Shown here piece after piece: positions 4,203 through 18,786 of a stretch of 64,000 bases of DNA. Location: positions 23,077 through 87,076 of the forward strand of contig QCNW01000006.1 of NCBI GenBank assembly GCA_003210025.1. The letters run 5' to 3'. The position numbers were made by a program, and so were the translations under genes. The notes beneath the pieces are model-generated. The model saw only the letters and a list, made by a program, of their open reading frames with translations, did not search any database and was not told the DNA's origin. Each line of letters opens with the position of its first letter. Positions within the stretch are counted from its first letter, which is position 1. The stretch comes from Pelagibacteraceae bacterium AG-426-M19. GTDB lineage: Bacteria > Pseudomonadota > Alphaproteobacteria > Pelagibacterales > Pelagibacteraceae.

Positions 4203-5540
4203 ATGTTCAAAAAAATTCTTGTTGCAAATAGAGGTGAGATAGCCGTTAGAGTTATTAGAGCCTGTAAGGAATGGGGCATTCAAACAGTCGCTATTCATTC
4301 TGACGTTGATAAAAATAGCATGCACGTTCGATTAGCTGATGAAAGTATATGTGTTGGACCTCATCAAGCTGCAAATAGCTACTTAAATATTCCAGCTATT
4401 ATGTCAGCTATTGAATTAACAAATTCTGAAGCTGTTCATCCAGGATACGGTTTTTTATCTGAAAATTATGAATTTGCAAAAATCCTTGAACAAAACAAAA
4501 TTAAATTTATTGGCCCGTCTTCCTCATTGATTAAAATGATGGGTGATAAAATTGAAGCAAAAAAAATTGCAAAAAGATATGGTCTTCCAGTTATTGAAGG
4601 ATCTGATGGAGGTGTATCTGATTTTAATGAAGCAAAAAAAATATGTGAAGATGTTGGGTATCCAGTTTTGATAAAAGCTGCAGGAGGTGGTGGTGGAAAA
4701 GGAATGAAAGTTGTTACAAAAGAAGAAGAATTTGAAAACTTATTTTTGACTGCGAAAACTGAAGCAAAAAAATTTTTTGGTAACGATGAGGTATATATTG
4801 AGAAATTTTTTCAAAATCCAAGACATATTGAAGTTCAAGTATTATCTGGAAAAAATAGAACAGTACATTTACATGAAAGAGATTGTTCGATTCAAAGAAG
4901 ACATCAGAAATTAATTGAAGAAACACCTAGTCCTTTACTGAATGATAAAATACGAAATGACCTTTTTGATAAAACAGTAAAAATGGTAAGCCAAATTGGA
5001 TACGAAGGTGCTGGCACAGTAGAATTTATTTTTGAGGATGGAAAATTTTATTTTTTAGAAATGAATACAAGAATACAAGTAGAACATCCGGTAACAGAAG
5101 TTGTAACGGGTATAGATTTAATCAAAGAACAAATCTGGATTGCATACGATGGTAACACAGCTTTAAAACAAGAAGATATTAAGCCTAGGGGACATGCTAT
5201 TGAGTGCAGAATTAATGCTGAAGATGTAAGTAAAAATTTTCAACCATCGCCAGGGGAAATTACTATGTGTCATCAACCCTCTGGATTTAGAACAAGAGTA
5301 GATGGTGCGATATTTCAAGGCTATAAGGTAACTCCATATTATGATAGCATGATTTGCAAGGTAATATGTCATGGGAGGAACAGAACTGAAGCCATTCAAA
5401 GAATGAGAAGGTCTCTTGATGAGTTTGTTATTGAAGGCATTAAAACAACAATAGACTTACATAAAATACTTTTAAATCATGAAAAATTTTTAAATTCAGA
5501 TTTTAATGTAAGTTGGCTTGACAAAGAAAAATTGCTTTAG
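4203..5540 (+). CDS. accC: Acetyl-CoA carboxylase biotin carboxylase
   Basis: KILVANRGEIAVR, HPGYGFLSEN, GGGGKGM, ERDCSIQRRHQK, EMNTRIQVEH. Confidence 0.97.
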   Translation: MFKKILVANRGEIAVRVIRACKEWGIQTVAIHSDVDKNSMHVRLADESICVGPHQAANSYLNIPAIMSAIELTNSEAVHPGYGFLSENYEFAKILEQNKIKFIGPSSSLIKMMGDKIEAKKIAKRYGLPVIEGSDGGVSDFNEAKKICEDVGYPVLIKAAGGGGGKGMKVVTKEEEFENLFLTAKTEAKKFFGNDEVYIEKFFQNPRHIEVQVLSGKNRTVHLHERDCSIQRRHQKLIEETPSPLLNDKIRNDLFDKTVKMVSQIGYEGAGTVEFIFEDGKFYFLEMNTRIQVEHPVTEVVTGIDLIKEQIWIAYDGNTALKQEDIKPRGHAIECRINAEDVSKNFQPSPGEITMCHQPSGFRTRVDGAIFQGYKVTPYYDSMICKVICHGRNRTEAIQRMRRSLDEFVIEGIKTTIDLHKILLNHEKFLNSDFNVSWLDKEKLL

Positions 5541-5944
5541 GAAAAGCATTTTTTTAACCAAATATCATAAACGGGATGATCAAATGGTCTAATTGAAGGG
5601 GACGAAGCAAAAGTCCAGTCGTTGAAAATAAAAACTTTATTTTCATCTCTATTAACTGTATCTCTTACTTGCATATATGCTGTAACCTCTGGATCATCAT
5701 CAAATTTTGAATTATTGCATTTAAGAATATTTATAGAAAGATTTTTAAATTTATATTCTCTACCAACTTCAATTTCAATTATTTCGCTTTGGGAATTTAC
5801 TTTATCTAAAATTGTTAGAACTGCAAATTTTTCAGTTTTTGTTTGATTTTCACTTAAAGAATTAATTGTTAATAAATAATAAAAAAAAAAAACAAGTGTA
5901 TAAACTTTAGCTTTTCCAAGAAGTATATTTTTTGTTTGAAGCAT
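5537..5944 (-). CDS. DUF2155-like exported protein
   Basis: Hydrophobic N-terminus, LDKVNS, C-terminal FNDWTFASSPSIRPFDHPVYDIWLKKC; usual position next to NDUFA12. Confidence 0.75.
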   Translation of the reverse strand: MLQTKNILLGKAKVYTLVFFFYYLLTINSLSENQTKTEKFAVLTILDKVNSQSEIIEIEVGREYKFKNLSINILKCNNSKFDDDPEVTAYMQVRDTVNRDENKVFIFNDWTFASSPSIRPFDHPVYDIWLKKCFS

Positions 5945-6281
5945 TTTTACTTTTGTTTTTATTTGGATGATAGGAATTTCCTGTTCCCGTTTGATTTGGC
6001 ATATGCTCTTTTTGCCAACTATATTTGTCTAATTCATGACTATTTTCAATTTTATTTCCTGTATGATGCATCCAGGAATACCATTCACTTGGTATTTTTG
6101 ATGCTTCAACTTCTCCGTTATAAATAACCCATCTTTTTCCTGACTTGCTTTCATAATATTTGTTGCCTGAATTATCTTTGCCTACTAATTTTCCAAACAG
6201 AATTGTATTTAGCCTTGTGCCAAGTGTTTGTTTGTTCCACCAAGTAAAAATTTCTTTAATCATTTTTTTAATTATTTTCAA
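5907..6281 (-). CDS. NADH:ubiquinone oxidoreductase 17.2 kDa subunit (NDUFA12 family); alternative start 6263
   Basis: VGKDNSGNKYY, RWVIYNG, EASKIPSEWYSWMHH, NQTGT motifs. Confidence 0.9.
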   Translation of the reverse strand: MKIIKKMIKEIFTWWNKQTLGTRLNTILFGKLVGKDNSGNKYYESKSGKRWVIYNGEVEASKIPSEWYSWMHHTGNKIENSHELDKYSWQKEHMPNQTGTGNSYHPNKNKSKNASNKKYTSWKS

Positions 6282-6285
6282 TTTA

Positions 6286-6348
6286 TAATTGTAAATTTAC
6301 AATTAGACTATAATTGAAAAATGTATATACATAAATCTTACCAAGATT
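6286..6348. promoter_or_regulatory. Three palindromes in the divergent NDUFA12 / TSCPD-protein spacer (candidate operators)
   Basis: TAATTGTAAATTTACAATTA (6286-6305), ATGTATATACAT (6321-6332), AATCTT-ACC-AAGATT (6334-6348). Confidence 0.4.
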
Positions 6349-6369
6349 CAATTTACAAATAGGATTATA

Positions 6370-7191
6370 ATGGCAAAATATTTAGTTGAAACATATTACA
6401 CATGTAACTTTAAAGTATCTCATTATTTAGATGAAATAAATGACGAAAATCTTAACAATTTAGAGAAAAATGACGACGGAAAATTTGAAATTATCGATGT
6501 CAAACTAGATAATAGAAAAACAAAAAACCTTCAAGATACTAAAAGTAGTAAAGTCGAAATTGTTTCACAACCAATTAATAATCAAGATACTAAAAGTAGT
6601 AATAAATCTAAACCAATGGAAGAAAATTTTAGAAAAAATATAACTGATAATGTAGGCAAAAGATTTAGTATGCCTGATAGAAGAAAAGGTTATATCCAAA
6701 AAGCTTCAATAGGTGATCACAAAGTATATTTGCATACTGGTGAATATGAAGATGGTAAAATAGGAGAAATTTTTATCGATACCAGTAAGGAAGGTGAGTT
6801 AGTAAAGGCTCTCATGAATAATTTTGCAATAGCAATATCATTAGGACTTCAATACGGAGTTCCACTAGATGAATTTGTAAACGCATATTTAGACACAAAA
6901 TTTGAACCTTCTGGTAAAGTTTACGGAAATGATCGAATAATGAGTGCAAGTTCAATATTAGATTATATTTTTAGAGAGCTAGCGATTTCCTATTTAAATA
7001 GAGAAGATTTAGCTCACACCCCATCTATAACTGGTAATTCTGAAACAAATGAAAGTCAAGAAAGTGAAGATCAAAATCAACTAATTAAACTTGTAAAAGA
7101 TATCACAAGCAAAGGATTTGTTAGAAACGATTATAAAAAGAAACTAGTAGATTTATCAGATATAAGAATAAATCTTAAAGGAAAAAAATAA
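6370..7191 (+). CDS. Stand-alone protein resembling the C-terminal (TSCPD) domain of class II ribonucleotide reductase NrdJ; no catalytic barrel
   Basis: [79 protein letters not shown] match the alphaproteobacterial NrdJ C-terminus; only 273 aa. Confidence 0.8.
6531..6602 (+). repeat. 21-bp direct repeat in a protein linker
   Basis: TCAAGATACTAAAAGTAGTAA at 6531-6551 and 6582-6602 (QDTKSS twice, 51-bp period). Confidence 0.8.
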
Positions 7192-8973
7192 TTATTTTTT
7201 TCTTTTTGAAATATAAAGTTCTTTAAGTTGACTTTCGTCTACTTCAGATGGTGCATTCATCATTAAATCTTGTGCGTTTTGATTCATTGGAAACATAGTC
7301 ACCTCTCTAATATTTTTTTCTTCTGCTAATAACATCACGATTCTATCTATTCCAGGAGCAATGCCCCCATGTGGAGGTGCGCCATAACTTAAAGCATTAA
7401 TCATACCAGTAAACTTTTCATCCACTTCTTCCTTAGAGTAGCCAGCAATTTCAAATAATTTATACATTAAATCAGGTTTATGGTTCCTGATAGCTCCTGA
7501 TGACAATTCAATTCCGTTACATACAATATCATATTGAAAAGCTTTTAGTTTCAAGGGTTCTGAAAGATCCAAATTATCAGTGTCACCTTGCGGCATAGAA
7601 AAAGGGTTGTGACTAAATTCGATCTTTTTAGTATTTTCATCTATTTCAAACATTGGATAGTCAACTACCCAACAAAATGAAAAAACATTTTCGTCAATTA
7701 AGTTTAATTCATTTGCTAATTTATTTCTTGCATTACTTAATAATTTCTCAACTTCAGATTTATTTCCACAAGACATAAATATTGTATCACCTATTTCAGC
7801 ATTCATTTTTGTCATTATCTCTTTAAGGGATTTGTCAGAAAAAAATTTTCCCACAGGTCCTTTTGCACTCAATTTGTCAGAATTTTCTATAGAAAAATAC
7901 GCAAGACCCGACGATCCTTCATCTTTAGCCCATTTATCAATTCCGTCAAAAAAACTTCTTGGTTTTTCAGATGTGTTTTTTGTAACTATTCCCCTAACTA
8001 TCGATCCTTTACTTACTAATTTTTTAAATATTTCAAAGTTAACATCATCTCTTTTAAAAATTTCAGTAATATCTGCTATTTCCAAAGGATTTCTCAAATC
8101 TGGTTTGTCAGAACCGTATTTAAGCATAGCCGTATCAAAAGGAATTCTGGGAAATTTTTCATGCAGTAACTTTTTAGAGGAAAATTTTTTGAATAAATTT
8201 ACAAATAACTCCTCAACTATTTTGAATACATCCTCTTGTTCTACAAAAGACATTTCCAAGTCAAGTTGATAAAACTCTCCTGGACTTCTGTCTGCTCTTG
8301 CGTCCTCGTCTCTAAAACACGGTGCAATTTGAAAATATTTATCAAAACCAGATACCATGATTAATTGTTTAAATTGTTGTGGCGCTTGAGGTAAAGCGTA
8401 AAATCTACCAGGATTTAATCTACTTGGTACTAAAAAGTCTCTAGCACCTTCTGGACTAGATGAAGTTAATATAGGTGTTTGATATTCTAGAAAACCATAT
8501 TTTTGCATTTCAGATCTAATAAATGAAATAATTTTGGATCTTAAAATAATATTATTATGAATTTTATTTCTTCTTAAATCTAAGAATCTGTACTTTAATC
8601 TAATTTCTTCAGAATATTCTTGATCTGAAAAAACAGGTAATGGTAATTCCTTAGTTCTTGCAAGTATTTTAAATTTTTCAATTCCTACCTCAATTTCTCC
8701 AGTATTTAAATTTTTGTTAATTGTATCTTTTTCTCTAACTAAAACTTTACCTTCAACTTGTAGTACAGTTTCTAATGGAAGTTTTTCAATTTCTTTGAAA
8801 ATCTTTTTACCCTCGTCAATTACACACTGAGTTAGTCCATAGTGATCTCTTAAATCTAAAAATAATAGATTTCCATGATTTCTTTTCTTATTTATCCAAC
8901 CTGATAACTTAATTGTTTGATCTTTGTTATTTAAAGTTAGTTCTCCACAAGTGTGTGTTCTATATTTACTCAA
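7192..8973 (-). CDS. aspS: Aspartate--tRNA ligase (possibly non-discriminating)
   Basis: YRTHTCGEL, RNHGNLLFLDLRD (His as in ND-AspRS), LPQAPQQFKQL, FQIAPCFRDED, PPHGGIAPGIDR. Confidence 0.97.
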   Translation of the reverse strand: MSKYRTHTCGELTLNNKDQTIKLSGWINKKRNHGNLLFLDLRDHYGLTQCVIDEGKKIFKEIEKLPLETVLQVEGKVLVREKDTINKNLNTGEIEVGIEKFKILARTKELPLPVFSDQEYSEEIRLKYRFLDLRRNKIHNNIILRSKIISFIRSEMQKYGFLEYQTPILTSSSPEGARDFLVPSRLNPGRFYALPQAPQQFKQLIMVSGFDKYFQIAPCFRDEDARADRSPGEFYQLDLEMSFVEQEDVFKIVEELFVNLFKKFSSKKLLHEKFPRIPFDTAMLKYGSDKPDLRNPLEIADITEIFKRDDVNFEIFKKLVSKGSIVRGIVTKNTSEKPRSFFDGIDKWAKDEGSSGLAYFSIENSDKLSAKGPVGKFFSDKSLKEIMTKMNAEIGDTIFMSCGNKSEVEKLLSNARNKLANELNLIDENVFSFCWVVDYPMFEIDENTKKIEFSHNPFSMPQGDTDNLDLSEPLKLKAFQYDIVCNGIELSSGAIRNHKPDLMYKLFEIAGYSKEEVDEKFTGMINALSYGAPPHGGIAPGIDRIVMLLAEEKNIREVTMFPMNQNAQDLMMNAPSEVDESQLKELYISKRKK

Positions 8974-9641
8974 TTTATTATCTCTTTTATTATTTTAAAG
9001 TTAATAGATTTTTTTTTCTTTAAACTCAATTCATCAATCTTATATATAAATTCATGCATTTTGCTATATGATCTGGCAATTCTTTTTATAATATAATCTA
9101 TAATTTTGTTATCTAACTTAATTTGCCTATCAGAGAAACTTTTTAAAATTATTGCATAAATCAACTCATCGTCTGGTTGCTCAATATTAGCTATTATGCA
9201 ATTCTTTAATCTTGATAATAAATCTGGAAGTGTAAATTTCATTGTATCTATTGGTTTTTTTGAAGAGATCAACAAATATTTATTGTCTTGTTCAACTAAG
9301 TTAAATAATGAATAAAGAAGTTTTTCGTCAAAACTTTCATCTAAGTCTTCAATTATTATATTGTTTGAAAGTTTAATTTTTTTTAAAATCTTAACGTCGA
9401 TATTTTTGCTATATAAATACAACGCATTACTTTTTTTTTTAAATATATTTGATAAATGTGTTTTACCAGAATATTTATCTCCAGTTAAATTGACAATTTT
9501 TTTTTCCCATTTAGGCCAAGCTTCTATAATATTTTTAGCAAAATAATTGCTTTTAGACACATAATAATCATTTTCATCAAAACTTTCAGCAATTCCAAAG
9601 TCTAAGAGTTTTTGATCTAATTCTCTCATTCTATATACCAA
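8970..9641 (-). CDS. hda: DnaA regulatory inactivator Hda-like AAA+ protein
   Basis: GDKYSGKTHL Walker A, IIIEDLD, LPDLLSRL, RQIKL; usual position next to DUF2066 and purM. Confidence 0.8.
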   Translation of the reverse strand: MVYRMRELDQKLLDFGIAESFDENDYYVSKSNYFAKNIIEAWPKWEKKIVNLTGDKYSGKTHLSNIFKKKSNALYLYSKNIDVKILKKIKLSNNIIIEDLDESFDEKLLYSLFNLVEQDNKYLLISSKKPIDTMKFTLPDLLSRLKNCIIANIEQPDDELIYAIILKSFSDRQIKLDNKIIDYIIKRIARSYSKMHEFIYKIDELSLKKKKSINFKIIKEIIN

Positions 9642-10702
9642 ATATCACTGGATGAGTTTATATTTATATTATTTACTTTTAAAGTATTTAGAAATTTTTC
9701 AGGATTATTATTATAAATTATTTTATATATAATTTCTTCGCTATTCATTTTCTCTATTTCATATTCATATACAAAATCAGATTCATTTAATATATTTTCT
9801 AATTTGTCAGATGTTATGAAATTACTGTTTTTTATTGAAATTTTTACAGGTATTGTAATTGAAGTATTGATTTTATTAATTAACTTCCACTTGTCTTCGT
9901 ATAAATTTTTTAAATTTAATATAATTTGATCTAATGTTTTATTATCTTCATAATTGATATTTTTTTGATTTAAATTAAATTTGAAGTTTGAATTTGAAAA
10001 ACTAATTTTGGAAAATATTTGTAAATCTTTTTTATTTTTGTAAAATATTACTACGAAAATATTTTCGAAGTTATATTTATTTGTAATCTCAGATAAATCA
10101 TTGTTTTCAATATTATTTTTTATTTTTTGAAAAAAACGAAAATATTCAATATTTTCATCTGGTAAATTATAATTTAATAAAAAATAATTTTTATTAACAT
10201 TGTTCCAATTATTATAAAAATAATTTTGATCAAAAAACTTAATCTCGTTACTTTGTGTATCAATTAAAATTGGTATAAAAAGAACATCTGTTTCTTTTGG
10301 AACAGAAGAAATAACATTTTTTTCTCTAATAAATGATAATATTTTTTTTTTATCAAACTTAACCTCAAAATCAACCTCATAATTATTGTTTACAAATTTT
10401 TCATTTGTTATAGAAAAATTATCAATCAATGAACTAATTTTATTGTTTGGTACATCCTTAAATAATTTTTTATCTTTACTTTCTACAATTTTAAAAATTA
10501 ATGTTTTAAATCCTTTTTCAAAACCCTTATTTATTACTTTATCTTTATTAAAATTAATGTCGTATTGTTCTTTAATTTTAATATTTTTAACTATGTAATT
10601 ATCTGCAAGAACTATAGCTGTGGAAAACTTGATAAAAACTAAAATGAAAAGTAAAAAAAAAAAGTATAAGTAAATATTAATTTTATTTTTGATTAAAAAC
10701 AT
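9626..10702 (-). CDS. DUF2066-like exported protein
   Basis: Signal peptide ending AIVLA; usual slot between purM and hda. Confidence 0.6.
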   Translation of the reverse strand: MFLIKNKINIYLYFFFLLFILVFIKFSTAIVLADNYIVKNIKIKEQYDINFNKDKVINKGFEKGFKTLIFKIVESKDKKLFKDVPNNKISSLIDNFSITNEKFVNNNYEVDFEVKFDKKKILSFIREKNVISSVPKETDVLFIPILIDTQSNEIKFFDQNYFYNNWNNVNKNYFLLNYNLPDENIEYFRFFQKIKNNIENNDLSEITNKYNFENIFVVIFYKNKKDLQIFSKISFSNSNFKFNLNQKNINYEDNKTLDQIILNLKNLYEDKWKLINKINTSITIPVKISIKNSNFITSDKLENILNESDFVYEYEIEKMNSEEIIYKIIYNNNPEKFLNTLKVNNININSSSDIWYIE

Positions 10703-10711
10703 AATTTAAAC

Positions 10712-11734
10712 ATGAGATCGAAAAATTTTACATATGAGAAAAGTGGCGTAAGCATAAAAAAAGCAGATAAATTTATTAAATTTATATCCTCAAGTACAAA
10801 AAAATCAAAAAAAAGTGGTCATTTTGAGAATATTGGGGGATTTGGAGCACTTACAAAACTGCCAAGTAATTTAAAGAATCCATATCTTGTAACTAGTACA
10901 GACGGAGTTGGTACAAAAATTGAAGTTGCAAATCAAATAGGTAAATTTGATACAATTGGGGTAGATCTTGTAGCTATGTGTGTAAATGACATTATCGTTC
11001 AAGGAGCAAAACCTTTACTTTTTTTAGATTATATATCAGTTGAAAAAATCAATACTAAAAAACTGAAAAGTATAATGAGTGGAATTATTAAAGGCTGCAA
11101 ATTAGCTGACTGTGAATTAGTTGGTGGAGAAACTGCAGAAATGCCTGGAACATATTCAAAAGGAAAATTTGATATTGCAGGATTTTCTTTAGGCCTAGTG
11201 GAAAAAGATAAAATATTATTAAATAAAATAAAAGAAAAAGATTTAGTGCTAGCAATACCTTCCAGTGGACTCCACTCAAATGGATATTCTTTAGTAAGAC
11301 ATATTATTAAAAAAAAAAAAATTAATCTAAAAAAAAATTCATTTTTAAAAAAAGAATTAATGGTACCAACAAAAATATATGTAATAAATATATTAGAATT
11401 AATTAAAAAAAAATATTTAAATGCTTGTGCAAATATTACTGGAGGTGGATTAAAAGATAATATTAAAAGAATAATACCAGATAATTATTGTGCTGAAATA
11501 AACTTAGAAAAAATAAAAACATTAAAAATATTTAGATGGCTAAAAAATCAAGGTGTTAGCGACCAAGAAATGTTAAAAACTTTTAATTGTGGTGTGGGTT
11601 TTTGTTTAATAGTAAAACGTTCAAACTACAAAAAAATAATTAGATTTTTTCCAAAAAAATATAAACCATATGTTATTGGAAAAATTACAAAAAATTCAAA
11701 AAAAGTAAAGTTGAGTGGAAAAGTTATTTGGTAA
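10712..11734 (+). CDS. purM: Phosphoribosylformylglycinamidine cyclo-ligase
   Basis: TDGVGTK, DLVAMCVND, GGETAEMPG, SSGLHSNGYSL, TFNCGVG. Confidence 0.97.
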   Translation: MRSKNFTYEKSGVSIKKADKFIKFISSSTKKSKKSGHFENIGGFGALTKLPSNLKNPYLVTSTDGVGTKIEVANQIGKFDTIGVDLVAMCVNDIIVQGAKPLLFLDYISVEKINTKKLKSIMSGIIKGCKLADCELVGGETAEMPGTYSKGKFDIAGFSLGLVEKDKILLNKIKEKDLVLAIPSSGLHSNGYSLVRHIIKKKKINLKKNSFLKKELMVPTKIYVINILELIKKKYLNACANITGGGLKDNIKRIIPDNYCAEINLEKIKTLKIFRWLKNQGVSDQEMLKTFNCGVGFCLIVKRSNYKKIIRFFPKKYKPYVIGKITKNSKKVKLSGKVIW

Positions 11735-16392: not shown

Positions 16393-18786
16393 ATGAAAAT
16401 TGTATATATATTAATAAAGCTATTATTTTTATCTTTAATGAGCTTTAATTCTTTGTCAGAGGAAATCCAAATAGAATCATCTGATATGAATATTATCAAT
16501 AATGGAAATACAATTCTTGCAAGTAATTCTAAAATTATTGTACCTAATCAAAATATAAAAATAAAATCTAAATTAGCTAATTATGAAAAAAATAAAAATA
16601 TTGTAACTTTAGAAGAAGAAGTATTTTTTGATGATAAAAATAATGAAGTCTTAATAGAGAGCAACTTCATAAAATATGATTTGAATAAAGAATTAATCTT
16701 CAGTAAAGGAAAAACATCACTACTTATAGAAAGTGAATATAAAGTTAATTCAAAAAATATTTATTATAATAGAATTTTAAAAATTATTTATTCTAAATCA
16801 GAAACATTGATTGAAGATGGTGAAAATAATTTTTATATTTTAAAAGATGGTTTTGAATTTAATGTAAATAATGAAATAATAAAATCAAATAAATCTATCA
16901 TCATTGATAAAAATAATAATAAATATATTTTTGAAAACTTATTACTTAATTTAAAAAGTAAGGAAATTGCAGGTAATGAACTTAAAATAGAATTTGAAAA
17001 GTCCTATTTTGGAAATAAAAAAAATGATCCATTGCTTAAAGGAAGAAGTTCATATTCTAATAATGAAGAATTGAAAGTTTATAAAGCAGTATTTAGCACT
17101 TGTAATATCGAAAATAAAAATTGTAGAGGTTGGGAATTAAATTCTGACGAATTTAAACACGATAAAGAAAAGAGGATTTTTGAATATAAAAATTCTTGGT
17201 TAAAAATCTTTGATCGTAAAGTATTTTTTACACCTTATTTTAATCATCCAGATCCAACTGTAAAAAGAAAATCTGGTTTTTTAACTCCAACGTATTCAAC
17301 TTCGGAGAGTCTGGGAATTTCATTTAATATTCCATATTTTAAAGTAATTAGTTTTGATAAAGATATAACCTTTAGCCCAAGGTATTATGCTGATAAAAGT
17401 TTTTTGCTTCAAAATGAATATAGGCAAGCTCTAAAAAATTCAAATGTCCTGAGTGATTTCAGTTTTCTTATAGGTGATGCTGGAACCAAGGGACATTTTT
17501 TCTATAATCAAGTAGGTAATTTAAATGATAATTTAGATTTTGAATTAAACTTACAGAGCGTTGAAGGAGATAATTATCTTAAAAACTATAAACTGATTGA
17601 AACGTCCAATCTAATAAAAAATGACAATTTGCTGATATCAAATCTTGATTTAAATTGGAAATTTGAAGATGCATCTCTAGATACTTCTTTAAAAATCTTC
17701 GAGGATTTATCAAGAAATTACAGCGATAGGTATCAATACGTATTTCCTAACTTTAAGTTTTCAAAAATAATTGAAATTCCAAAAAAATATAACGGAAAAT
17801 TCACATTTAATTCATATGGTTATAATAAACTGTATGATACAAATGTAACTGAGACAGTTATAACAAATGATTTTTTGTTCTCATCTGATGAATTTGTAAA
17901 TTCTAAAGGAGTAGTATCAAATTATAATATTTTTTTAAAAAATCCTAGTTCTTATGCAAAAAATTCCTCTAATTTTGAAGACGATGAAAATTATGATTTA
18001 TATGGAACAATAAAGCTTGATAGTAGTTTTCCACTTCAGAAAAAAATAGATCAATACATTCATTATTTGAGACCTGTGGCATCTGTAAGATATAGTCCAA
18101 ATGGCAATAGTGATATTTCTTCAAAAGATGTTTTGTTAAACTATGATAATGTCTTTAGCTTAAACAGAATTGGCACTTCTGATCAAGTTGAAGGGGGAGA
18201 CTCATTAAGTATGGGACTAGAATTTAAAAGATCTGATAATCTTGGAACTGATATATTCGATTTCAAAATTGCAAACGTTCTTAAATCAAAAGAGAATTCT
18301 AAACTTCCTACCAAATCTAAATTAAATAAAACGAGGTCAGATTTTTTTGGTTCATTAAATTACAATTTTAACAAAAATTTGAAATTTGGCTATGATTTTT
18401 CATATGATAGAGATTTGGAATACTCAAACTTAGAAGGTTTAAACGTTGGTTTAAATTTAAATAATGTTTTTACAGATTTTTATTATTATACTACCAAAAA
18501 TGATCTTGGTAAAAATGAAACAATTTCAAATAGTACATTGATAAACTTAAATACTGAGAATTCATTCGAATTTAGTACCTCAAAGGATTTAATTGATGAT
18601 TTTACAGAATTTTATAATTTAATATACACGTATGAGACAGACTGCATTTCATTAAATTTAAATTACAATAAATCATTTTATAGAGATGGTACACTTGAAC
18701 CCAATGAAAGTTTGTCATTTTTGATTAAAATAATTCCATTTACAGAATTAGGTGTACCTAATCTTGGAAAATTAATAAATAAATAA
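16393..18786 (+). CDS. lptD: LPS assembly protein LptD
   Basis: FSTC..WEL, PYFNHPDPTVKRKSGFL, ISFNIPYF, YTYETDC; lptFG-lptD-surA-pdxA-rsmA synteny. Confidence 0.88.
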   Translation: MKIVYILIKLLFLSLMSFNSLSEEIQIESSDMNIINNGNTILASNSKIIVPNQNIKIKSKLANYEKNKNIVTLEEEVFFDDKNNEVLIESNFIKYDLNKELIFSKGKTSLLIESEYKVNSKNIYYNRILKIIYSKSETLIEDGENNFYILKDGFEFNVNNEIIKSNKSIIIDKNNNKYIFENLLLNLKSKEIAGNELKIEFEKSYFGNKKNDPLLKGRSSYSNNEELKVYKAVFSTCNIENKNCRGWELNSDEFKHDKEKRIFEYKNSWLKIFDRKVFFTPYFNHPDPTVKRKSGFLTPTYSTSESLGISFNIPYFKVISFDKDITFSPRYYADKSFLLQNEYRQALKNSNVLSDFSFLIGDAGTKGHFFYNQVGNLNDNLDFELNLQSVEGDNYLKNYKLIETSNLIKNDNLLISNLDLNWKFEDASLDTSLKIFEDLSRNYSDRYQYVFPNFKFSKIIEIPKKYNGKFTFNSYGYNKLYDTNVTETVITNDFLFSSDEFVNSKGVVSNYNIFLKNPSSYAKNSSNFEDDENYDLYGTIKLDSSFPLQKKIDQYIHYLRPVASVRYSPNGNSDISSKDVLLNYDNVFSLNRIGTSDQVEGGDSLSMGLEFKRSDNLGTDIFDFKIANVLKSKENSKLPTKSKLNKTRSDFFGSLNYNFNKNLKFGYDFSYDRDLEYSNLEGLNVGLNLNNVFTDFYYYTTKNDLGKNETISNSTLINLNTENSFEFSTSKDLIDDFTEFYNLIYTYETDCISLNLNYNKSFYRDGTLEPNESLSFLIKIIPFTELGVPNLGKLINK

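Follow-up and report, generated by a model that had tools for sequence, protein, structure and literature searches.

Many alphaproteobacteria encode the B12-dependent ribonucleotide reductase (RNR) NrdJ divergently from a gene of the NDUFA12 family, and the corresponding locus in SAR11 raises the question of what kind of protein has taken the place of that enzyme. The DNA analysed here (the window) is a 64,000-nucleotide stretch of Pelagibacteraceae bacterium AG-426-M19 (GenBank assembly GCA_003210025.1, contig QCNW01000006.1, positions 23,077 to 87,076 of the forward strand) with a G+C content of 27.9%. The gene in question, at 6370..7191 on the forward strand, codes for a stand-alone, NrdJ-derived IscU-like (TSCPD) protein of 273 residues, the ortholog of SAR11_0723 in strain HTCC1062. 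An initial annotation had described it as a catalytically empty NrdJ relic, with either an RNR-independent function or a place in a split NrdJa/NrdJb system. We find that the protein has several domains and, far from decaying, is held under strong purifying selection, and that it is probably a functional, non-catalytic remnant of nrdJ whose IscU-like module works independently of ribonucleotide reduction. SAR11 is the ocean's most abundant bacterial lineage, and its genomes are among the most streamlined known and do not retain junk.

Composition of the 273-residue protein and selection on its segments

The open reading frame (ORF) is intact, begins with ATG and spans 273 codons, as initially annotated. 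In Pfam, residues 110-205 match TSCPD (PF12637) at 42.8 bits (E=6.6e-11; gathering score 22.8), and residues 72-260 align at 225 bits to positions 942-1131 of the NCBIfam model PRK07562, a 1222-position model of alphaproteobacterial NrdJ, so that the reported resemblance of the C-terminal part to the TSCPD region of NrdJ holds good. The 225 bits are nonetheless far under the PRK07562 equivalog cutoff of 1737 bits, and the protein does not qualify as a member of NrdJ. The hallmark of a class II RNR is a ten-stranded alpha/beta barrel with a finger loop that carries the thiyl-radical cysteine (N-P-C-x-E). Neither an NPC motif nor a CxxC is present in the 273-residue sequence, as had been noted; its only cysteine, C12, lies outside every NrdJ-homologous region, and there is no Pfam match to Ribonuc_red_lgC. 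When five full-length true NrdJs were compared by tblastn with the whole window, the sole match was at 6499-7155, corresponding to NrdJ residues ~937-1149, and this search detected no barrel remnant within the 64 kb. The Ribonuc_red_2_N domain and the four-Cys zinc ribbon are also missing from the SAR11 protein, which terminates ~20 residues beyond an S-K-G-F-x-R motif, at a point where NrdJ continues into the zinc ribbon. Relative to NrdJ, it is without ~940 upstream residues (N-domain, barrel and an alpha-specific insert) and ~90 downstream residues (zinc ribbon and a redox pair). The proposal that the catalytic barrel was deleted and the C-terminal domain kept is correct for the barrel and the TSCPD region, but the C-terminal zinc ribbon has gone too and the loss is two-sided.

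With no barrel, thiyl-radical cysteine, redox cysteines or zinc-finger tail, the 273-residue protein would be unable to reduce ribonucleotides; judged from its sequence it is not an RNR, and B12-dependent nucleotide reduction is implausible. More than 8000 homologs of 256-293 residues were found, the named ones belonging to Candidatus Pelagibacter and labelled 'ribonucleotide reductase'. SAR11_0723 itself appears in databases and papers as 'ribonucleotide reductase alpha subunit / nrdE' or as 'ribonucleoside-diphosphate reductase alpha chain'. Because there is no catalytic domain, these RNR-subunit labels for SAR11_0723 are wrong, and the mislabelled gene can mislead surveys of RNR classes in marine metagenomes.

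An alignment of 28 SAR11 homologs defines five segments, all on the forward strand, and the ratio of nonsynonymous to synonymous substitution rates (dN/dS) was calculated for each by the Nei-Gojobori method from 77 distinct intact SAR11 orthologs recovered from 80 metagenome loci, using 300 pairs with dS 0.05-1.2. The N-terminal domain (residues 1-54, 6370..6531) is a conserved, SAR11-specific block with a dN/dS of 0.055, and holds C12, which is conserved in 77/77 orthologs, every one of them having exactly one cysteine. Linker 1 (residues 55-96, 6532..6657) is of low complexity and variable in both sequence and length, with a dN/dS of 0.53. The IscU-like/TSCPD core (residues 97-220, 6658..7029) is Cys-free and near-invariant within SAR11, with a dN/dS of 0.023, and is followed by the acidic, variable linker 2 (residues 221-236, 7030..7077; dN/dS 0.46) and by a conserved C-terminal segment (residues 237-273, 7078..7188; dN/dS 0.05) containing the S-K-G-F-x-R motif common to NrdJ. 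The whole-gene dN/dS is 0.10, and by the identical method the neighbouring aspS and NDUFA12 genes have values of 0.094 and 0.22. The word 'relic' is misleading for a gene with a dN/dS of 0.10 overall and 0.023 in its core, as low as or below that of the adjacent aspS.

No cysteine occurs across residues 97-273, so the four cysteines and the T-S-C-P-D motif that are conserved in canonical stand-alone TSCPD proteins (PF12637) are absent, and 'ASSILD', with S-S-I-L-D for T-S-C-P-D, occupies the motif position; what the SAR11 protein shares with that family is a significant match to its hidden Markov model (HMM) and the small size of the protein around the domain. Scaffolds of the IscU/NifU type have three cluster-ligand cysteines (plus Asp/His), none of which is present here, and the likeness in fold is weak. 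The core is 64-70% identical over ~125 residues to the tail of the long NrdJd-type RNRs of alphaproteobacteria and actinobacteria (PRK07562/PRK06556; Burnim et al. 2022, PMC9669993), and with the NrdJ tail it shares the preceding PDRRKGY segment, the following S-K-G-F-x-R, the lack of cysteine and the chromosomal locus; unlike that tail, the SAR11 domain is free-standing and has a new N-domain of 54 residues. An IscU-like domain without an assigned role has been described at the C-termini of class II RNRs (PMC9669993). While the TSCPD/IscU-like domain family is known, the free-standing, Cys-free, NrdJ-derived form with a new N-domain is new. From SAR11 to Rhizobiales, about 25 polar residues do not vary (among them R104, R105, K111, H117, E125, D137, K140, E141, N150, N151 and D198), which suggests a conserved surface for binding, and S247, G249 and R252 are invariant or nearly so in SAR11, dead and true NrdJ proteins (defined below).

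An AlphaFold2 model built on a 74-sequence alignment is reliable for the core only, where the predicted local distance difference test (pLDDT) is 85-92 and three strands are followed by helices. Structure prediction of the N-domain, which had been proposed as a check, gave long strands at residues 4-17 and 38-53 and a short helix, but at a pLDDT of only 64-72, and both linkers are below 50. A Foldseek search of the PDB returned no significant match; its list is headed by CsdE, ISCU2, SufU and IscU (best E=0.17), a ranking that agrees with the published IscU-like description (PMC9669993) while falling short of proof. Among solved structures, sequence and profile searches of the PDB detected nothing homologous to the core. 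The solved chain of R. sphaeroides NrdJ (7b9p) has 925 residues, and its match to an NrdJ-like query stops before the IscU-like domain.

The N-domain, initially reported as an unrecognised domain of ~55 residues, indeed has no match in Pfam or NCBIfam. An origin within NrdJ was sought in several ways and rejected: an HMM of residues 1-56 found nothing beyond SAR11 among 150 NrdJ-like representatives, hhalign gave probabilities of 0.06% against 38 dead full-length proteins and 0.05% against 48 true NrdJ N-termini, and Smith-Waterman alignment to the first 60 residues of true NrdJs gave z=0.10 relative to shuffles. Resemblances seen by eye ('VETYYT / IERRYT' and 'DG') are unsupported by the profile and shuffle tests.

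The nrdJ locus in other alphaproteobacteria

The divergent neighbour of the gene in the window is the NDUFA12-family gene at 5907..6281 on the reverse strand (PF05071, E=1e-20), in agreement with the initial annotation, and the convergent neighbour is aspS at 7192..8973, also on the reverse strand; both served as synteny anchors. The order in SAR11 is thiG-thiS-aroQ-accB-accC-DUF2155-NDUFA12 <> gene < aspS < hda. A scan of GTDB genomes provided 80 alphaproteobacterial loci for comparison. True NrdJs of 1220-1300 residues, with NPCxE at ~residue 480 and a zinc ribbon, are encoded divergently from NDUFA12/DUF2155/accC in many Hyphomicrobiales, Rhodospirillales-like and other genomes (for example at loci L036, L037, L046, L051, L053, L058, L067, L073, L078, L083 and L085), and the general association of nrdJ with a divergent NDUFA12, which had been given as background, is borne out by NPCxE-positive nrdJ genes at at least 12 of the sampled loci. 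At the position of the SAR11 gene, Caulobacter, Brevundimonas, Phenylobacterium and related metagenome-assembled genomes (L010-L038), as well as two metagenomic loci (L006, L008), have an NrdJ-like protein, encoded at ~8001-10900 in most of the loci, that we call dead, a term inferred from sequence, and aspS lies downstream of it in many loci of the Caulobacterales type. The NDUFA12 neighbour is common to the SAR11, dead and true NrdJ loci and, given this shared synteny, the SAR11 gene is the positional ortholog of alphaproteobacterial nrdJ.

The dead NrdJ-like proteins are ~830-1140 residues long and occur in all sampled Caulobacterales and in several other alphaproteobacteria. Among the best 150 cluster representatives at 50% identity, none has the NPC.E motif, and the NPC tripeptide occurs in 3/150, never at the finger-loop position. 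We aligned 32 dead proteins with 48 true NrdJs and with the R. sphaeroides NrdJ of known structure (7b9p). The thiyl-radical cysteine (NPCSE) is replaced in 32/32, as is the second redox cysteine (TACN), and the region of the first (HACFIQ) is deleted in 30 and substituted in two of the 32. Of the columns in which true NrdJs show 95% invariance or more (390 on the barrel side and 95 in the IscU-like core and tail), the dead proteins keep 20% in the barrel versus 86% in the core and tail. The same trend is evident in mean column identity. In the core this is 0.82 for true NrdJs and 0.88 for 26 dead forms of Caulobacterales, and upstream of the core it is 0.69 and 0.38, respectively. This drift of the barrel set against conservation of the core, with selection having released the enzyme and held the IscU-like module, is what chiefly argues for a separate function of the module.

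The C-terminal tail behaves differently from the barrel. The four zinc-ligand cysteines in the last ~40 residues are retained in 31/32 dead proteins, and two additional tail cysteines, invariant in true NrdJs, are replaced in all of them. We interpret these two as the redox shuttle pair that Loderer et al. described (PMC5704485), and the pattern would fit loss of the redox shuttle with the structural zinc finger kept. In a neighbour-joining tree of the core, which is short and poorly resolved, dead forms are scattered in at least three places among live ones, suggesting that catalysis may have been lost repeatedly.

The SAR11 protein resembles the dead group in its NDUFA12-aspS locus and flanks, in the loss of the catalytic cysteines and in its tightly constrained core and S-K-G-F-x-R. 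It differs in that the dead proteins retain a drifting barrel remnant of 600-900 residues, Ribonuc_red_2_N and the four zinc-ligand cysteines of the ribbon, whereas the SAR11 protein has none of these and adds the N-domain. Every core of true or dead NrdJ is 64-70% identical to that of the SAR11 protein, whereas these cores average 79% identity among themselves; the SAR11 core has a long branch that is as far from dead as from true forms, yet it is almost frozen within SAR11, and the core phylogeny gave no sister group, live or dead, for the SAR11 protein. As dead full-length forms exist in other lineages, catalytic death may have preceded truncation in the SAR11 lineage; alternatively, one deletion may have removed catalysis and length together. 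The deletion scenario of the initial annotation accordingly stands as to the derivative nature of the gene and its ancestral nrdJ locus, but a single deletion in an active enzyme is only one of the possible courses.

The series from active NrdJ through dead full-length protein to the minimal SAR11 form, all at one locus, separates the function of the domain from catalysis, and Caulobacter offers a tractable test system, its annotated 'NrdJ' having been classed among the B12-dependent enzymes. C. crescentus CCNA_01966 is annotated as NrdJ and has been treated as a B12-dependent RNR (PMC6538847); the Caulobacter sequences analysed here come from other species of the genus. Our literature search yielded only uses of the CCNA_01966 annotation, and no paper on the function of TSCPD, on SAR11_0723, on NrdJ pseudoenzymes or on catalytic death of the Caulobacterales 'NrdJ'. 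Inferences of B12 dependency that count matches to 'nrdJ' or TSCPD are wrong for SAR11, and probably so for Caulobacterales. Two other proteins with duplicated cores were seen in the survey. P0122 (L170:5001-6050; L171:1133-2182), a further free-standing form, has 349 residues with two tandem IscU-like cores and a zinc ribbon; its gene adjoins those of a rhodanese and an ABC transporter and has no nrdJa beside it; P0130 has 294 residues with two tandem IscU-like cores and is without the zinc ribbon.

Expression, function and competing explanations

The HTCC1062 ortholog, SAR11_0723, is flanked by SAR11_0722 (an aminoacyl-tRNA synthetase) and SAR11_0724 (NADH-ubiquinone oxidoreductase 17.2-kD subunit, i.e. 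NDUFA12). In published RNA-seq data for HTCC1062 (PMC12753301) it has 640-1000 transcripts per million (TPM), about the level of nrdA (SAR11_1159, 640-1030), with nrdB (SAR11_1158) at 1300-2070, NDUFA12 at 220-370 and aspS (SAR11_0722) at 130-226. The same study reports that HTCC1062 possesses and uses the class I nrdAB, and lists SAR11_0723 among the host genes with differential expression when phage infects the cells (list membership only). In the portion of its RNA-seq table available to us, the only RNR-annotated genes are nrdA, nrdB and SAR11_0723 (PMC12753301). The gene is also covered by contigs of four marine metatranscriptomes, with peaks of depth over the core that are inflated by cross-strain mapping. 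Constraint at the level of an aminoacyl-tRNA synthetase together with nrdA-like transcription imply that the gene is doing something important in SAR11.

Given this strong constraint and good expression, the protein is presumably functional, with an IscU-like module that carries an RNR-independent function. Of the interpretations offered in the initial annotation this is the best-fitting one, agreeing with the purifying selection, with the expression and with the parallel retention of the module by dead proteins, and we consider it probable. In such a scenario, nrdJ would have been cut down in SAR11 to the Cys-free IscU-like domain and the short S-K-G-F-x-R helix, a SAR11-specific, beta-rich domain of 54 residues would have been attached N-terminally via a disordered linker, and deoxynucleoside triphosphates (dNTPs) would be supplied by the class I NrdAB. 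The RNR-independent task probably predates the truncation and was already present in full-length NrdJ, since several lineages independently lost the barrel and kept the module almost unchanged. A plausible form of this task is a non-enzymatic binding, adaptor or sensor unit for a conserved protein partner or small ligand, with the ~25 invariant polar residues making up the binding surface, and the N-domain would then take over the contribution once made by the NrdJ body or zinc ribbon, now lost. Docking of a reductant is unlikely as the conserved role, because the dead forms have no redox shuttle pair.

A broader and more tentative proposal, for which we would claim rather less than an even chance, is that the IscU-like module of alphaproteobacterial NrdJ in general has an autonomous, conserved and RNR-independent role, for example as an adaptor or sensor connected with the supply of DNA precursors or with some other core process, so that NrdJ moonlights, and that after a switch to class I RNR the gene was kept for this second role. 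Evolution might then have passed through a full-length pseudoenzyme, as in Caulobacterales (with the annotated 'NrdJ' of the model organism as one case), and reached the minimal 273-residue form with a new effector N-domain in SAR11. A narrower version of the RNR-independent module, and our leading guess as to pathway even if we hold it to be doubtful, would make the protein a partner or regulator, itself non-catalytic, of dNTP supply or DNA replication, e.g. one that binds NrdA/NrdB or senses nucleotides. Descent from an RNR is in keeping with this, as are a transcript level near that of nrdA and membership in the list of genes differentially expressed during pelagiphage infection, when nrdAB rise, and the core, with its many invariant Arg, Lys, Asp, Glu and Asn residues, would be suited to binding nucleotides or proteins; SAR11_0723 is not, however, adjacent to nrdAB (SAR11_1158/1159), and similar expression levels are weak evidence. 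A partner of complex I, or a protein of Fe-S or sulfur handling, is a weaker alternative than the dNTP or replication link and in our view improbable. The divergent NDUFA12/DUF2155 neighbours would favour it, as the NDUFA12 <> nrdJ arrangement is kept across several alphaproteobacterial orders, but the arrangement also holds for fully catalytic NrdJ and may be inherited gene order, and NDUFA12 transcription is flat and about threefold lower. Likewise, the non-significant Foldseek leaders (CsdE, ISCU2, SufU and IscU) hint at an IscU/SufE-like fold and the lone invariant C12 is reminiscent of persulfide acceptors of the SufE/CsdE type, yet C12 belongs to the N-domain, which is unrelated, and the modules of dead and true NrdJs have nothing equivalent to it, and a role as Fe-S scaffold is unlikely because all of the IscU/TSCPD cluster-ligand cysteines have been replaced.

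The two remaining explanations would dispense with an RNR-independent module, and both fare poorly. The protein could be an ordinary NrdJb of a split class II RNR with NrdJa encoded elsewhere, as had been offered at the outset. Like the NrdJb of Pseudomonas aeruginosa NrdJa+b (Crona et al. 2015, cited in PMC9669993 and PMC5704485) it is a separate polypeptide with an IscU-like domain (PMC9669993), and databases annotate it as 'ribonucleotide reductase'. NrdJb, however, has a zinc-finger Cys-rich domain that shuttles reducing equivalents (PMC5704485, PMC9669993) and an adjacent nrdJa, neither of which is seen here; the single cysteine of the SAR11 protein is in the N-domain, the 64 kb contain no NrdJ barrel sequence and no nrdJa, the HTCC1062 table, as far as available, has only nrdA and nrdB as RNR-annotated genes besides this one, and the positional counterpart of the gene is a fused nrdJ rather than an nrdJa-nrdJb operon. 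We regard a split enzyme as very unlikely. Less likely still, to the point of being negligible, is a pseudogene fragment decaying after deletion of nrdJ. The great loss of length relative to the ancestor and the fast-evolving linkers (dN/dS ~0.5) would accord with decay, but the gene is intact in 77/80 of the metagenome loci sampled, its three structured segments have dN/dS of 0.023-0.055, it is as constrained as aspS and it is transcribed at several hundred TPM; the dN/dS near 1 that decay would produce, raised in the initial annotation, is far from the 0.10 obtained across the 77 SAR11 orthologs.

Intergenic region and neighbouring reading frames

The 88 bp region between NDUFA12 and the gene (6282..6369) contains blocks that are conserved across divergent SAR11 loci, and in 72 such loci we recognise TTCAAT..AATTGT, AAATTAGACTAAA, TTTGTATATAxAT and GATTC. 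Judged by eye, these blocks seem more conserved than the AT-rich spacer around them, and they are probably shared promoter or operator elements, although this assignment is putative. Rfam has no family match in 6282..6369, and neither a regulatory RNA nor a riboswitch was found there; matches to a sigma-70-like promoter consensus upstream of the gene are not above chance, and no terminator was found. The palindrome ATGTATATACAT was considered as an NrdR box and rejected by inspection; it occurs in only 2/72 loci and so, unlike the TTTGTATATAxAT block, is not itself conserved.

Two ORFs elsewhere in the window have no Pfam match at E<=1e-5. One, at 9626-10702 on the reverse strand (358 residues), lies between hda and purM. 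The other, at 16393-18786 on the forward strand (797 residues), is located after two LptF/LptG-family genes in syntenic SAR11 loci, and from this position may be a divergent LptD. Spacing around the gene itself is tight, its stop codon and the convergent aspS ORF adjoining end to end without any spacer (7189-7192), and on the other side the DUF2155 ORF (5537-5944) and the NDUFA12 ORF (5907-6281) overlap by 38 nucleotides as listed.

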